The notes under the pieces are model-generated. The model worked only from the letters and a program-made list of their open reading frames with translations, was not told the DNA's origin and did no database searches. Shown here piece by piece: positions 27,482 through 32,446 of a stretch of 64,000 nt of DNA (within the stretch, counting starts at the first letter, position 1; each line of letters opens with the position of its first letter). The DNA comes from Clostridia bacterium (lineage in GTDB: Bacteria; Bacillota; Clostridia; CAKSNL01; HGM11501): positions 81,618 through 145,617 of the forward strand of contig JAZQAZ010000020.1 in the NCBI GenBank assembly GCA_045545475.1. The letters run 5' to 3'. Both the position numbers and the translations under genes were made by a program.

Positions 27482-28312
27482 ATGGATTTTTTATCTGAAT
27501 TCAGAGAAAGGCTTGTAAATGATGAGAAGGCAAAACTTACTGTGGAAAAATATGTAAGAGACTGCAGGGCGTTTTTAGCATGGGTTTCGGAAAGCGGGAG
27601 AACGCTGGATAAAGAGGCGGTGCTTTGCTATAAGGAGCTTATTTCAAAGAAACACAAAACTGCCGGAGCGAATTCTATACTGTCATCTCTGAATGCATAT
27701 TTTTCATATATAGGGAGAGATGAGCTTAAGGTAAAAATATTAAAGAGACAAATGACTACCTTCAGAAACGAAGAGAAAGAACTTACGAGAGACGAATATG
27801 TAAGGCTGCTTAATGCCGCAAAGGAGCGTAAAAACAGAAAGCTTTATTATATTATGATGACTGTATGCCGCACAGGGATAAGAATTTCGGAGCTTTCTTA
27901 TATTACGGTGGAAGCGGCAAGAAAAAAGGAGGCGGTTATAGGAAATAAGGGGAAGATAAGAATTATCCTGCTTCCGGAAAAGCTTTGCAGAGAGCTTCTT
28001 TGTTATGCTTCTGAAGAAAAAATAAAAAGCGGCCCCCTGTTTGTAACAAAAAACGGGAATCCGCTTGACCGATCAAATATATGGAAAATGATGAAATCTC
28101 TTTGCGAAAGTGCGAATGTGGAAAGGGAAAAGGTTTTTCCGCATAATTTAAGGCATCTTTTTGCGGTAACCTTTTACAGTGTCCATAAAGATATTGTGCA
28201 TCTGGCAGATATTTTAGGACATTCTACGGTTTCCACTACAAGAATTTATACACTGGAAAGCAGCGGGGCACATAGAAAACAGATGGAACAACTAACAGGT
28301 CTTTTGATTTAA
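27482..28312 (+). CDS. Tyrosine site-specific recombinase (probable DNA invertase), 276 aa
   Basis: AAGGAGG RBS before ATG 27482. Complete catalytic set: TGIRISE (R), GNKGK (K), FPHNLRH (HxxR), ILGHS (H), TTRIY (Y). N-terminal SAM-like region (TVEKYVRD); no arm-binding domain is evident. Confidence 0.93.
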   Translation: MDFLSEFRERLVNDEKAKLTVEKYVRDCRAFLAWVSESGRTLDKEAVLCYKELISKKHKTAGANSILSSLNAYFSYIGRDELKVKILKRQMTTFRNEEKELTRDEYVRLLNAAKERKNRKLYYIMMTVCRTGIRISELSYITVEAARKKEAVIGNKGKIRIILLPEKLCRELLCYASEEKIKSGPLFVTKNGNPLDRSNIWKMMKSLCESANVEREKVFPHNLRHLFAVTFYSVHKDIVHLADILGHSTVSTTRIYTLESSGAHRKQMEQLTGLLI

Positions 28313-28321
28313 AAATAAAAA

Positions 28322-28347
28322 TACCACATAATGCCGATTATGTGGTA
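28322..28347. repeat. Left recombination site (inverted repeat IRL)
   Basis: TACCACATAA-TGCCGA-TTATGTGGTA: palindromic 10-bp arms around an asymmetric 6-bp core, 9 nt after the recombinase stop. Confidence 0.92.
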
Positions 28348-28367
28348 AAAAGAATTATTACATAAAG

Positions 28368-28396
28368 ATTATAACATCAGGGAAGCGGTTTGTCAA
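28368..28396 (-). promoter_or_regulatory. Perfect-consensus sigma-A promoter inside the invertible segment
   Basis: Minus strand TTGACA (28396-28391) - AACCGCTTCCCTGATGT (17 nt, extended TG) - TATAAT (28373-28368). No minus-strand gene lies immediately downstream in this orientation. Confidence 0.88.
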
Positions 28397-28450
28397 TAGT
28401 TTTTTATCAATGGAAAAATAAAACTTTGCAAAAATCAGACATAATGAAGC

Positions 28451-28487
28451 GACCGATGAGGCAGAATTTTACATCGGTCTTTTTTTT
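28451..28487 (+). terminator. Unidirectional intrinsic terminator inside the invertible segment
   Basis: GACCGATG-13nt-CATCGGTC-TTTTTTTT; no A-run on the left side. Confidence 0.8.
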
Positions 28488-28550
28488 GCGCACATTTTTT
28501 GGGAAAAATTTCTTTTTATAAAATCCGTATGGCAGATGAGAAGGAGAGAT

Positions 28551-28576
28551 TACCACATAATCGGCATTATGTGGTA
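28551..28576. repeat. Right recombination site (inverted repeat IRR)
   Basis: TACCACATAA-TCGGCA-TTATGTGGTA, the exact reverse complement of 28322-28347 (27 bp with one flanking base). Confidence 0.92.
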
Positions 28577-28612: not shown

Positions 28613-31600
28613 ATGAAAAAGGAGTTTTTGCACATTTTCAGCTTCGTTATGATTGCAATTTTCACATTCTCTTGTATCGGGGCTGTAAGTGCGGAAGAAA
28701 CCTTCGATATTCCCGTAATTGAGGAAGTATCGGAGGAGGAGCTTGCAGAGGTTCTCCCGGAAGAGGCAGACGTGGAGATGATGGAGGAAGAAACGGAAAT
28801 CGCTAAGGAAGAAGCATATTTTGAAATACGTGACGGAAAAGGAAATCATGTATGGTTTTTTGCTGATTTGAAGGAGGCACTTTCCTCAGATAAATTACAA
28901 AACGGCTATACACTTTTGATGCTGAAAGACTACACTTGGGATTATACTCTGGCAGATGTATCCAAGGGCGAAATCAGCGGAATAGATATGCCGGGAAGTA
29001 AAACCTTCACATGGGACGGCGACGGTCATACCATTACCGACAAATTTGACAGAAGCAAGTATACGAGAATGACTCAAAAAGACGGTGTATGGACTACGGA
29101 GTTGGGAGGCCATGATGACAGAGCTTCCTACAATCTTGGTAGTGCAAAAGTAACTGCGAAAAACATAACATTTTCGGGAAATCCGCAAAATACGATTAAT
29201 AAACAGGGACATACAAATGGCTGTTTTAATATCGGTAACGGTCAGCTTACATTGAAGGATGTTAAATTTATAAACTATTTCGGATGGAACGGCAGCGTTT
29301 GTTGGATGCAGGGAACAGGCAAGCTGGTTATGGTTGAAAATGTAACTGCCGAAAACTGTTCAGTGCAATACCACGGTCTTATAGGGATAAATAAAGGAAC
29401 TGCTGAAATAAGCGGATTCACTATGAAAAACTGTAAAGGAACTGCTGCTATCGGTGTAGGTACAGTTGCTTCCGAGGCAAGCCTTAACATAGAAAACAGC
29501 ACTATAACAAATTGTTCAACCGGAATACTTGTAGGAGCTTCTGGTGAGTCTGGTAATCAGGGTGTTGCTAATATTGGAGACAATGTGACTATATCCGGTT
29601 GTTCATATGGTATATCTGTTCATACTGGTGCTACAGTCAATGTGACAGGCTTAAACGTTAATATTAACAGAAATACCGAAAGTGGTATAGTTCTTTACAA
29701 CAAAAAGGAAGCTGAAATTGGCTCAACATTAAATGCAACTGGTGGAATGAATATAACAGAAAACCAGAACGCCGGTATTGATATTGCTGAAAACTCAATA
29801 GTTATATTAAATGGCAATGTCAATGTTACAGAAAATACAAATGCTGATATCAGAATGGAAGTAGCTGACGCACTTGAGGTTGGCGAAGGCTTTACTGGAA
29901 CGGCAGGAGTTAGTGTTGTTTCAAACGATATCTGGTTCGGACATCTGGCAGAAGGGGTAGAAACACTTAATGGAACAATATACGAGGGAATTGATCCCAA
30001 CGGACATAAAGGTGCTGTATATGAAAGCCTGATTGGTTCGGGAACGGTAACCCATAACGGAAAAACATATTCTCTTAAAAAGCCTGTAACAAGAGACCTT
30101 GACGATAATGCTCTTGTAATTGGCTACAAAATGTATAAAAAAACAGGCTCCGATGCGGCGGGATACAAGAGAGTCGGAGCGGATGCTGCCATAGGTACAA
30201 GTATGCTCAGCGGTGGAGAAATTTATCTTCTTTCGGATATAACTTTGGCAGGAGATATCAAGTGCGATAAGGATAGCTCTACTATTGACGACCACTTTGA
30301 CTTTACCGGAAGCACAGCTGTTGCAAATATATACGGAAATGGTCACACAATAAGCATTCATGATGATTATACAAAGGGGCATTTTTTCGCAGTTTACCAG
30401 GATGCGACCATGAATTTCCACGACGTTATTTATAACGGAAAAGGAAGGACGACTTTTGCCTATATACACTGCTCGGAAGACCCTAAGGGTGGCGGTGCAA
30501 TAAGTGCAGACAATGTTATATATTATAATGGTAAGCATACTACCTATGCCGGCGGTATTTATAACTCAGGAGAAGCCTATGCCGGTACAATAAATGTAAA
30601 AGACTGTAAGTTTATAGCATGCAAAGGTGCAAACGGCGGTGCATTATATTCTACAGGACTCGGCGTGCTCAATGTATCTGATACAGACTTTATAGATTGT
30701 GCGGCTACAAGTAACGGAGGTGCAGTTTATCTCACCAATAATCATACAATGACTATGTCTGGAGAAATCAATGCTACAGGCAATAAGCGTGGAAGCAAGG
30801 AAAACAATGTGTACCTTTCAAGCGGAGCGAAAATAAACATAGCAGGAAACATAACAGGTGAAATAGGTCTTACTATGGCACAGTCAGGTGCAACCTTCGG
30901 AACTGTTGCAGATACCAATATCACAGGTCTTGATTGCTTCTATGCAGATGGTGCAGAGATAAGATATTATACAGCAATCGGCACCGAACCTGTCATTGAA
31001 AAGGTTAAAGGTACCTTGTTCCCGGAAACTGTGGGAACAGGTGAACTTAACGGTGAGGTTGTTATCGATATGCAGGATGTTGCATCAAGAAAAGAGGGAA
31101 GAGAAAAGGATGCAGTTTTGCACTGGCCCTGGATTGTAGTAAAAGAAGACGAAACCAGATACGGATATGTAAGCCTTAACTCGGCGTATTCAAACCTTGC
31201 GGCAACTTCATTCATATATGCTCAGAAGGACATAACAATTCAGCATTTGTGGGATAAAGCTATAACAACTGAAACAACAAGCGAGGAAAGAAAAGAAATC
31301 TATGCACACGTAGAATTTCCTCTTCCGGGTTCTGGAGATAGGCTTAACCATATAAATACGGGAGCAAATGTAAACATCGACGGAAACGGACACGTGATAA
31401 CGGTAGATAAATCTGATAGTAACTATATGTTTGTTATATACGGCAATAACAAGAGCTTGCAACTTAAAAACTTTATTTATAACGCCGATAAGCCTATGGC
31501 ACATATACATAAAGACCAGGCAAACGGAACAGAAGCGATTATCATAAATAACAGTTATTTCAACAGTCCGAACAGAAATGTTATAGGTGCATTTAAGGGA

Positions 31601-32446
31601 GGAACGGTCACTGTCAATGACAGCACAGTGATTGGAACTTTCGATATAGGATCAGGAGCTAAGCTTATACTTTCTGATACGGCAGTTTCAAAACCGAGCG
31701 GAAAGAGTGTGGTTCTTACCGGTGTTGCACCTGTTGAAGCAAGCGGCGAAACAGCGGCAGTTCCTGCGGTAATTACAAAAGTAACGGTAAAGGGTGATAC
31801 GACGATTTCAGCAGGTAATGGCCTTTATGCAAATAATAAGTATGTCGAAGTTATAATAGACGAAAGCTTTACCGGTTCAATTGAGGTAAATGAGGCGAAC
31901 GGCTGTATAGATAATGTTAAAGCAGGCGAAGGCTTTACTTCCTTAGAGTCTGTAAAGAGCATTACTAAAGCAGGTTCAAACGGCGAAACATTTGCATATT
32001 ATGACGAAGCAAATGAAAAGTTTGCGTGGACTATGGCACCTGAGCTTACACGTACGACAGATTCGGGTAAGTATAGTGACGGGTACGGAACAATAAGATT
32101 TCTGACAACATTTAAAACTGTTGACTCTGCTGCCGTTGCAAGTTATGGAACCTATGCGGTGGGAGAAAGCAGCTTTGTTGAGAATGCAGAGTGGGAAGAA
32201 ACAGAGTTCATAAAATTTGACAAGACACCGGAAGCTGATAAGGTATATTATGTTGATGTTATAAAAATTCCCGCGGAGCATTTTGATACAAAAATTAAGG
32301 CACTCAGCTTTGTAAAGATTAAAGGAATAAAAACCCCCATTTATTACGATTTCAATTTGGCAAGTGTAAATAAAAATGACACAGAAACAGGCGAGGGAAC
32401 ACTGAAGAACTTAGGCAAGCCAACATATGCCGAAGCAGAAGCATGA
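28613..32446 (+). CDS. Large secreted/surface protein, ~1277 aa, predicted beta-helix (pectate-lyase-like/Pmp-like) repeats; possible adhesin
   Basis: GAAAGGAAGG RBS before ATG 28613. Signal peptide MKKEFLH..GAVSA, Glu-rich linker, three D/Y-G-x-GH-x-I modules (DGDGHTI, YGNGHTI, DGNGHVI), GGAI/GGIY/GGALY/GGAVY motifs, Asn/Gly/Thr-rich strands. Confidence 0.8.
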   Translation: MKKEFLHIFSFVMIAIFTFSCIGAVSAEETFDIPVIEEVSEEELAEVLPEEADVEMMEEETEIAKEEAYFEIRDGKGNHVWFFADLKEALSSDKLQNGYTLLMLKDYTWDYTLADVSKGEISGIDMPGSKTFTWDGDGHTITDKFDRSKYTRMTQKDGVWTTELGGHDDRASYNLGSAKVTAKNITFSGNPQNTINKQGHTNGCFNIGNGQLTLKDVKFINYFGWNGSVCWMQGTGKLVMVENVTAENCSVQYHGLIGINKGTAEISGFTMKNCKGTAAIGVGTVASEASLNIENSTITNCSTGILVGASGESGNQGVANIGDNVTISGCSYGISVHTGATVNVTGLNVNINRNTESGIVLYNKKEAEIGSTLNATGGMNITENQNAGIDIAENSIVILNGNVNVTENTNADIRMEVADALEVGEGFTGTAGVSVVSNDIWFGHLAEGVETLNGTIYEGIDPNGHKGAVYESLIGSGTVTHNGKTYSLKKPVTRDLDDNALVIGYKMYKKTGSDAAGYKRVGADAAIGTSMLSGGEIYLLSDITLAGDIKCDKDSSTIDDHFDFTGSTAVANIYGNGHTISIHDDYTKGHFFAVYQDATMNFHDVIYNGKGRTTFAYIHCSEDPKGGGAISADNVIYYNGKHTTYAGGIYNSGEAYAGTINVKDCKFIACKGANGGALYSTGLGVLNVSDTDFIDCAATSNGGAVYLTNNHTMTMSGEINATGNKRGSKENNVYLSSGAKINIAGNITGEIGLTMAQSGATFGTVADTNITGLDCFYADGAEIRYYTAIGTEPVIEKVKGTLFPETVGTGELNGEVVIDMQDVASRKEGREKDAVLHWPWIVVKEDETRYGYVSLNSAYSNLAATSFIYAQKDITIQHLWDKAITTETTSEERKEIYAHVEFPLPGSGDRLNHINTGANVNIDGNGHVITVDKSDSNYMFVIYGNNKSLQLKNFIYNADKPMAHIHKDQANGTEAIIINNSYFNSPNRNVIGAFKGGTVTVNDSTVIGTFDIGSGAKLILSDTAVSKPSGKSVVLTGVAPVEASGETAAVPAVITKVTVKGDTTISAGNGLYANNKYVEVIIDESFTGSIEVNEANGCIDNVKAGEGFTSLESVKSITKAGSNGETFAYYDEANEKFAWTMAPELTRTTDSGKYSDGYGTIRFLTTFKTVDSAAVASYGTYAVGESSFVENAEWEETEFIKFDKTPEADKVYYVDVIKIPAEHFDTKIKALSFVKIKGIKTPIYYDFNLASVNKNDTETGEGTLKNLGKPTYAEAEA

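Follow-up and report, generated by a model that had tools for sequence, protein, structure and literature searches.

What becomes of a short stretch of DNA that lies between two inverted, perfectly symmetric copies of a site resembling dif, just behind the gene of a tyrosine recombinase, and which enzyme would act on it? The question is raised by positions 28,322 to 28,576 of a 64,000-nucleotide piece of a Clostridia bacterium genome (GenBank assembly GCA_045545475.1, contig JAZQAZ010000020.1, positions 81,618 to 145,617 of the forward strand), the whole of which is referred to here as the window. The original prediction, made from the letters of this DNA, held that the two sites are dif-like and fully symmetric in a 10-6-10 build, and that a single Xer-related recombinase uses them as minimal, Cre/lox-like sites, possibly with no need of accessory factors, which would make the pair a candidate orthogonal genetic tool. 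Our answer, to which we assign a probability of roughly 85%, is that the locus is a phase-variation promoter inverton, in which the adjacent Xer-like recombinase inverts a segment of 201 base pairs (bp) and thereby switches the gene of a 1277-amino-acid protein on and off. The parts that matter for this reading are the following:

27482-28312, plus strand: gene of an Xer-like tyrosine recombinase of 276 amino acids (P0003; Pfam Phage_integrase, 2.2e-24)
28322-28347, no strand: proximal recombination site, here IRL, TACCACATAA-TGCCGA-TTATGTGGTA (sequence, repeat and motif scans)
28349-28549, no strand: invertible segment, 201 bp between 27-nucleotide arms (reverse-complemented in a sister genome, G002; 255-nucleotide Logan contigs)
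28368-28396, minus strand: predicted promoter of the sigma-70 type, TTGACA-17-TATAAT with a TG extension (12 of 12 matches)
28551-28576, no strand: distal recombination site, here IRR, TACCACATAA-TCGGCA-TTATGTGGTA (sequence, repeat and motif scans)
28613-32446, plus strand: switched gene, a protein of 1277 amino acids with a signal-peptide-like N-terminal segment (translated from the ATG at 28613)

The two sites were found where they had been predicted, both in the sequence and in a motif scan of the window, which at up to three mismatches returned two matches as against none in 100 dinucleotide-preserving shuffles. Together they form a perfect 27-nucleotide inverted repeat (28322-28348 and 28550-28576) with 201 nucleotides between its arms. 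That the arms are symmetric, so that polarity comes from the core alone, was borne out by the sequence and the repeat search, and the symmetry is even stronger than had been claimed: the dyad reads as 11-4-11 (TACCACATAAT-GCCG-ATTATGTGGTA for IRL and TACCACATAAT-CGGC-ATTATGTGGTA for IRR), one base more per side than 10-6-10, and the asymmetry is confined to the central 4 bp, GCCG/CGGC. Even so, 10-6-10 is more likely than 11-4-11 to be the functional parse, because a paralogous switch in G002 (L031), TACCACATAA-TTTGCC-TTATGTGGTA with an exact reverse-complement partner, is asymmetric over 6 bp, TTTGCC/GGCAAA. The original prediction had also proposed a genome scan for further sites; run over the source genome (G000; 2,739,205 bases in 50 contigs, 95% complete) at up to three mismatches, it returned none besides IRL and IRR, and a scan of a metagenome contig collection for the exact 26-mer site gave no stretch.

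Inversion itself is seen between genomes. The sister genome G002 carries the same locus (L007), with a recombinase 97% identical to that of the window's own locus (L006); the flanks and both sites of the two loci are collinear and align base for base, the interior gives no direct alignment, and the segment with both its sites, once reverse-complemented, is identical to that of G002 at 250 of 255 positions. The predicted promoter of the window points toward the recombinase gene, which makes this orientation the predicted OFF state and that of G002 the ON state: after inversion the -10 hexamer would end 20 nucleotides from IRR, facing the large gene, and this is how it is arranged in G002.

Orientation within samples was followed in Logan contigs (k = 31) of four public runs (X1, X3, X6 and X17). 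In X1 and X17 contigs end at 28348, cover exactly 28322-28576 (255 nucleotides) and resume at 28550; in X3 and X6 a single contig runs through the switch in the OFF orientation. The borders in X1 and X17 are the pattern expected, indirectly, of a k = 31 graph in which both orientations are present, because k-mers inside the unit of site, segment and site are common to both orientations and those that reach into the flanks are not. The claim that the inverted cores dictate inversion is thus upheld by the flipped segment of G002 and by contig breaks that fall to the base in two of the four runs, and both orientations are found in nature, OFF in the source genome and ON in G002. Many other metagenome contigs share the site, with different flanks.

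In the mechanism that we propose, the adjacent 276-amino-acid recombinase, acting as identical subunits, would bind both symmetric arms of each 26-bp site, synapse the two sites and exchange strands across the central region, upon which the 201-bp segment would be inverted and both sites regenerated unchanged. Inversion would be the productive outcome, since the asymmetry is limited to the central 4-6 bp, which in one site are the reverse complement of those in the other. With the promoter toward the recombinase the switch would be OFF, and with the promoter flipped toward the gene of the 1277-amino-acid secreted protein it would be ON. We infer from the sequences that the adjacent enzyme is the catalyst and acts as a homotetramer, and likewise the position of its cleavage. 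What an inverton consists of is in place at the locus: an inverted-repeat pair round a short segment, a recombinase gene with its catalytic residues intact, and a predicted promoter that would drive the neighbouring gene in one orientation only.

The recombinase gene has its stop codon 9 nucleotides before IRL, and residues R134, K156, H221, R224, H247 and Y256 of its product are invariant in 25 paralogues, the catalytic set RKHRHY being intact. Its relation to the Xer and Fim-type families was judged from the scores of hidden Markov models. Those of NCBIfam gave, in bits and with the cut-off in brackets, XerA 133 (220), XerD 121 (330), XerC 101 (335) and XerS 59 (267), a Xer subfamily model gave 111 bits, and all Xer models stay far below their cut-offs; Fim-type invertase models gave 34 and 24 bits only. 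The best matches in PDB are XerA, XerD and XerH. By these scores the enzyme is Xer-related and lies outside every named Xer family. The idea of an Xer-related, dif-like recombinase therefore holds as far as kinship goes, given these best matches and the inner palindrome of dif in the sites, and fails if a bona fide Xer protein is meant, every model being below cut-off. The idea of a single recombinase also stood: one gene adjoins the sites, and in the protein search it is the sole member of its family in the source genome.

That search covered 41 genomes and turned up close paralogues (45-60% identity) in 15 besides the source genome, or 16 with it; ten of the 15 belong to the same family (nine to the same genus) and five to other families of the class, and one genome, G008, has up to 11 recombinase matches. 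In all 36 loci found by homology a site, complete or truncated where the contig stops, adjoins the recombinase stop codon, which in most of them lies between -15 and +29 nucleotides from the site. Their 136 half-sites have the consensus TACCACATAAT, to which IRL is identical, and at positions 5-11 (ACATAAT) 118-136 of the 136 agree with it. Species-representative genomes scanned for CACATAAT-N4-ATTATGTG gave at least 121 stretches. Among the matches listed there are 80 loci; 53 have a family recombinase beside the site and come, by their titles, mostly from gut Clostridia (Lachnospiraceae, Oscillospiraceae, Faecousia, Blautia, Anaerotruncus and others), and 16, from other phyla, are lone palindromes without a family recombinase. 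The pooled set comprises 86 unique loci, 50 of them collected by a pattern that fixes 16 site positions and 36 unbiased, and across these 86 the motif ACATAAT-N4-ATTATGT recurs directly downstream of the recombinase gene. A word-index protein search scored 7,998 candidates and retained 7,995 clusters at E <= 1e-30, with few names, these being 'tyrosine-type recombinase/integrase' or 'XerD'.

The architecture of the window recurs in this pooled set. At least two sites occur in 70 of the 86 loci, and in 69 of these 70 the partner has a reverse-complementary core; in 68 of the 69 paired loci the sites are spaced 190-326 bp apart (median 253), the exception being a locus at 821. A single clear promoter, for which at least 10 of 12 matches were required, lies near one end and faces outward in 60 of the 69, toward the recombinase in 47 and away from it in 13. 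The cargo consists mostly of surface, polysaccharide and regulator genes, with types that include SLH, BspA-LRR, subtilase, Wzz, Wzy, acyltransferase, TetR and helicase. Recombinase genes stand at contig ends in at least 5 of the 36 related loci, as would be expected if mixed orientations break short-read assemblies; a contig end in or just past the switch is a feature of many family recombinase genes (L011, L016, L018, L027, L034 and others).

It might be held that the palindromes are mere terminators or operators, and that the flip in G002 came from a rare event of illegitimate or homologous recombination involving the 27-nucleotide repeats. Each site does form a hairpin of 11 bp, and IRL resembles a terminator when read on the minus strand. 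Yet the sites are strictly linked to an adjacent recombinase with intact catalytic residues, 69 of 70 multi-site loci have reverse-complementary cores, both promoter orientations recur in the family, contigs break at the repeat borders in two of four runs, and switches of the same geometry flip in culture (PMC11892184), all of which makes this explanation very improbable.

Several observations weigh against the inverton reading. The coexistence of both orientations in one sample rests on the pattern of Logan contig breaks, and among the contigs listed for the four runs none spans an ON junction. One contig of X1 joins 28346 to 28548, skipping 201 nucleotides, with 29 nucleotides on its shorter side; the joint fits neither orientation of the switch nor a simple excision product. 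In the family, the pooled statistics are biased by the 50 pattern-collected loci, four loci with more than 1.2 kilobases of room show one site (L013, L040, L054 and L108), and nine of the 69 paired loci have no promoter or a tie.

As to what is switched, a Pfam search of the 1277-amino-acid protein gave no family; its nearest atlas clusters are hypothetical proteins of Bacillota, the pectate-lyase-like, Chlam_PMP and Beta_helix families come up as weak leads (0.82-0.83), and it is probably a surface or secreted protein of the beta-helix type. The genes that precede the cassette are housekeeping ones (an amino-acid kinase, a class-III aminotransferase and DUF1846). This setting between housekeeping genes, and a family with several copies in some genomes (as many as 11 matches in G008), are what one might see if the recombinase served a mobile element for integration and excision, with the sites as its dif-like att sites. 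The sites, though, are inverted and not direct, lie about 200 bp apart and enclose a promoter rather than cargo, and the change observed is an inversion, with the same locus and flanks in the sister genome, so that we regard a mobile element as a most unlikely source of the arrangement.

The inverton reading leaves the question of where its sites come from. Kono et al. 2011 (PMC3025954) give the dif sequences of Escherichia coli (GGTGCGCATAATGTATATTATGTTAAAT), Bacillus subtilis (ACTTCCTAGAATATATATTATGTAAACT) and, as a prediction, Frankia alni (CACGCCGATAATGCACATTATGTCAAGT), the first of which agrees with the sequence quoted in the original prediction. All three carry ATTATGT on one side, and four bases away ATAAT (E. 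coli and F. alni) or GAAT (B. subtilis) (PMC3025954). In an alignment made by eye the window site is identical to E. coli dif at 16 of 28 positions, concentrated in CATAAT and ATTATGT. The family motif falls on the inner palindrome in the dif sites of E. coli and F. alni and, in B. subtilis dif, on the ATTATGT arm; the part of the switch sites that hardly varies is this inner palindrome of dif. Both arms of a switch site resemble the ATTATGT (XerD-side) arm, a likeness that would fit a single recombinase, and we take the resemblance to dif to reflect common descent with Xer/dif rather than chance. Judged against what marks an Xer system, the sites have arms of about 11 bp round a 6-8-bp centre and the dif inner palindrome, but the enzyme stays below the equivalog cut-off and the site is not a single-copy resolution site.

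Exact matches to ATAAT-N4-ATTATGT in the source genome are the two switch sites and one at C23:47454 (locus L167, about 2951-2970); the latter was considered as a dif candidate and rejected, as it lies inside the 3' part of a 194-amino-acid open reading frame and is probably a chance match. An archaeal case concerns a record titled Candidatus Argoarchaeum ethanivorans (L124), where an Xer-like gene at 1315-2325 (XerD 190 and XerA 160 bits, both below cut-off) has a lone CTGCACATAAT-TTAC-ATTATGTGCTG at L124:1198-1223, about 95 bp past its stop codon and with the same inner motif as the switch sites; gene and site may form a module of the xerA/dif type.

A shared inner palindrome also raises the thought that a chromosomal Xer protein of the host, and not the adjacent enzyme, acts on the switch, and XerCD rearrangement at dif-like sites of Acinetobacter plasmids has been reported (PMC9947245, PMC5790767). 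The five Phage_integrase matches of the source genome hold no canonical XerC/XerD pair. What the genome does hold, on contig C8, is an XerS-like gene of 347 amino acids (XerS model 151 bits, below cut-off), directly preceded, outside the window, by an 11-4-11 palindrome of its own, TTCAGATAAAT-AACT-ATTTATCTGAA (C8:170792-170817; L003, about 2293-2318). Of 14 genomes of the family, 8 carry this palindrome, as do 6 of the 7 high-quality ones, in a single copy and always beside that gene; two genomes carry a symmetric arm change that preserves the palindrome, and its arms are unlike those of the switch sites. Gene and palindrome are probably the chromosome-resolution module of the host, and they match the 'single module' described for XerS/difSL (PMC5357621). 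Because the XerS-like gene has its own, different and conserved site, and with the switch sites directly downstream of a family recombinase gene in 36 of 36 homology-found loci, it is quite improbable that the host Xer protein is the actor.

If the adjacent recombinase inverts the segment, a further question is what could give the switch a bias. The sites are unchanged by inversion, and the earlier argument that any bias must then come from outside them is logically right. The flanks are asymmetric in two respects, an A-run before the proximal site and a terminator-like hairpin inside the segment, and these are a candidate source of bias:

28310-28321, no strand: stop codon and A-rich spacer (TAAAAATAAAAA), on the minus strand a U-run after the IRL hairpin (sequence)
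28451-28487, plus strand: terminator-like hairpin, GACCGATG / CATCGGTC, with a 13-nucleotide loop and then T8 (sequence, fold)

IRL was flagged as terminator-like on the minus strand, with 11 pairs and the tail TTTTTATTTT; its minus-strand hairpin has 11 bp, a folding energy of -12.4 kcal/mol and z = -5.8, and is followed by UUUUUAUUUU, and no T-run follows IRR. Over 69 related loci the 10 nucleotides before the proximal site are 68% A, with at least seven A in 48 of the 69, and a T-rich (or A-rich) stretch follows the distal site in only four of the 69. The internal hairpin faces rightward in the OFF state only, and its stem is kept in G002. Taken together, the A-run would make IRL a hairpin-plus-U-run intrinsic terminator that stops OFF-state transcripts before they enter the recombinase gene in antisense; IRR, having no U-run, would let ON-state transcripts pass; and in the OFF state the internal hairpin with its T8 would stop transcripts that read through from the recombinase gene. 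The flanks would in this way supply the asymmetry that the sites lack, IRL with the A-run serving as a one-way terminator, IRR as a read-through element and the internal hairpin as a stop, a proposal that we think has an even chance of being right. The strict terminator scan left the internal hairpin unflagged, its loop exceeding 8 nucleotides; across the family it found a forward terminator in 7 of 47 OFF loci, and also in L113, which is without a clear promoter. On the opposing side of the balance, the internal hairpin folds at -12.6 kcal/mol with z = -1.7, which is statistically weak, the IRL stem has only three G-C pairs, the A-run is absent in 21 of the 69 loci, and where the recombinase gene overlaps the site the bases upstream of the site are coding.

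How self-contained such a switch would be turns in part on its core. The pooled set has 41 distinct cores. Those of G002 differ between its switches (GCCG, CGAA and TTGC), and two switches of that genome have identical arms and different cores. Palindromic cores appear depleted (none in the 69 paired loci, with 37 distinct cores, as against about 6% expected), which is only weakly supported; the loci are not independent. A rule that each core is unique within its genome was considered and rejected, since seven paired paralogous switches of G008 share ATAC/GTAT. This core marks a subfamily that comprises the G008 loci L038, L039, L041, L043, L044 and L045 (plus L040) and the G005 loci L036 and L042; the G008 recombinases of the subfamily are 46-48% identical to the query, and the arms are less symmetric. 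Since the G008 copies have ATAC/GTAT in common, it is not the core that separates them. L040 itself has a single site, whose 4-bp core is the palindrome ATAT, and within 1.5 kilobases there is no partner for it.

A third site is present in 7 of the 86 loci. Three sites are seen in L008, L009, L010, L017, L019 and L121, and L026 has two tandem sites before the contig ends; the extra sites are tandem, 32-44 bp apart from start to start, and have the same core. The tandem pair is distal in L008, L009 and L121 and proximal in L010, L017, L019 and L026, and inversion between outermost sites would interconvert these arrangements, giving up to four states. Several of the tandem-site switches precede regulators of the TetR family.

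The most far-reaching view is that the family is a self-contained minimal module derived from Xer/dif, in which one small recombinase acts as identical subunits on a fully symmetric 26-bp site, a freely variable core of 4-6 bp alone sets both polarity and the choice of partner, and in which the proximal palindrome serves also as a one-way terminator; we offer it tentatively and, taken whole, think it rather unlikely. Somewhat better placed, though still short of probable, is the possibility that the switch is the same in kind but not minimal and Cre/lox-like, and that efficient or directional inversion depends on accessory factors, be they nucleoid proteins, sequences within the segment or additional sites of binding. 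Inversion by FimB/E with integration host factor (IHF) and Lrp, and the action of XerCD at cer/psi, are precedents for such factors. At cer, XerCD requires ArgR and PepA (PMC5357621). The spacing of 190-326 bp in 68 of 69 paired loci would leave room for architectural requirements, the third tandem site, 32-44 bp from its neighbour, and the conserved A-run beside the proximal site could have such a role, and the reference assemblies are skewed, 47 OFF to 13 ON. However, archaeal XerA, the best-scoring relative, works on dif independently of FtsK (PMC5357621), the only features found to recur across paralogous switches were the sites, one promoter and the A-run, the interiors not having been motif-searched, and the narrow spacing could equally come from a minimum size of the DNA loop together with the need to house one promoter.

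What would follow from the inverton reading is that the 1277-amino-acid secreted or surface protein is expressed in part of the population only, which bears on gut colonisation, and the switch also bears on how metagenome assemblies break. More broadly, it would be a case of an Xer/dif resolution system turned into a gene switch, with the arms made alike, the site duplicated in inverted orientation and only the core free to vary. Should the enzymes work on bare 26-bp sites, they would offer many ready-made pairs of recombinase and site for engineering Gram-positive anaerobes, and should the minimal-module view be true, the more than 7,900 recombinase clusters would amount to a natural library of largely orthogonal pairs independent of host factors. 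If the terminator proposal is correct, the shielding of the recombinase gene from the OFF-state promoter would give a functional reason for the perfect symmetry of the arms.

Among known systems, fimS of E. coli is a promoter segment of a few hundred bp flipped by the adjacent tyrosine recombinases FimB and FimE, with short repeats that are not dif-like and a need for IHF and Lrp. The locus studied here resembles it in that the recombinase gene abuts the switch, an arrangement that would allow orientation-dependent control, and differs in its low scores with the Fim-type models (34 and 24 bits) and its dif-like sites. Cre/loxP and FLP/FRT have symmetric arms, one recombinase and an asymmetric spacer that sets polarity, so that inverted sites lead to inversion, in sites of the 13-8-13 type. 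One recombinase, symmetric arms and a polarity-setting spacer are also what the sequence of the present locus suggests, but the seven PDB sequence matches of its enzyme include no Cre chain. With XerCD/dif of E. coli, B. subtilis and F. alni the switch sites share the inner palindrome and the spacing (PMC3025954); unlike them, dif has two different arms for two recombinases, and the outer arm positions of the switch sites differ from it.

The single-recombinase Xer systems, XerA/dif, XerS/difSL and XerH/difH, are described as having one enzyme that serves both arms of a near-palindromic site, often with the gene adjacent, the XerA dif being 11-6-11 and independent of FtsK (PMC5357621). The window switch is like them in having one recombinase gene that adjoins its site, with XerA as the best-scoring model and the best PDB match. 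Theirs are single-copy resolution sites, however, whereas here two inverted copies stand round a promoter, and the arms of difSL and difH are unequal whereas those of the switch sites are perfectly symmetric (PMC5357621). Two further systems are Xer1/vpma of Mycoplasma agalactiae, where sites in the 5' untranslated regions of several genes let one promoter be shuffled among them (PMC2268961), and cwpV of Clostridioides difficile (PMC2784873): as here, an Xer-named or tyrosine recombinase encoded at or near the locus is tied to phase variation of a surface protein by inversion. A dif-like symmetric site is not described for vpma in the portion of that report available to us (PMC2268961).

Nearest of all is inverton group 139 of the hCom2 survey (Microbiome 2025, PMC11892184), which comprises 33 invertons, 32 of them from Clostridia; the group is associated with tyrosine 'invertase group 35', almost all of its invertons have a tyrosine recombinase next to them, and flipping was seen in culture passages (PMC11892184). 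Its geometry, 26-nucleotide repeats round 205 nucleotides in Clostridium sp. D5 and 255 nucleotides overall in Intestinimonas butyriciproducens, compares with 26/27-nucleotide repeats and 255 nucleotides here (PMC11892184). The main text of that survey uses neither 'xer' nor 'palindrom', and describes neither a likeness to dif nor a symmetric build of the 11-4-11 type nor a core that varies (PMC11892184). Literature searches that combined inverton with dif-like, Xer or Xer-like likewise gave no description of dif-like inverton sites, and a search for the motif strings gave, among the matches listed, unrelated primers only. What is found here, an inverton from Clostridia whose geometry agrees and which has a tyrosine recombinase next to it, and related loci from records of Clostridia, makes the switch family probably the same as group 139, a match by geometry, the repeat motif of the group being given in the supplements of the survey (PMC11892184). 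The switch of the window is thus a member of a very common family of switches in gut Clostridia, of a kind already known.

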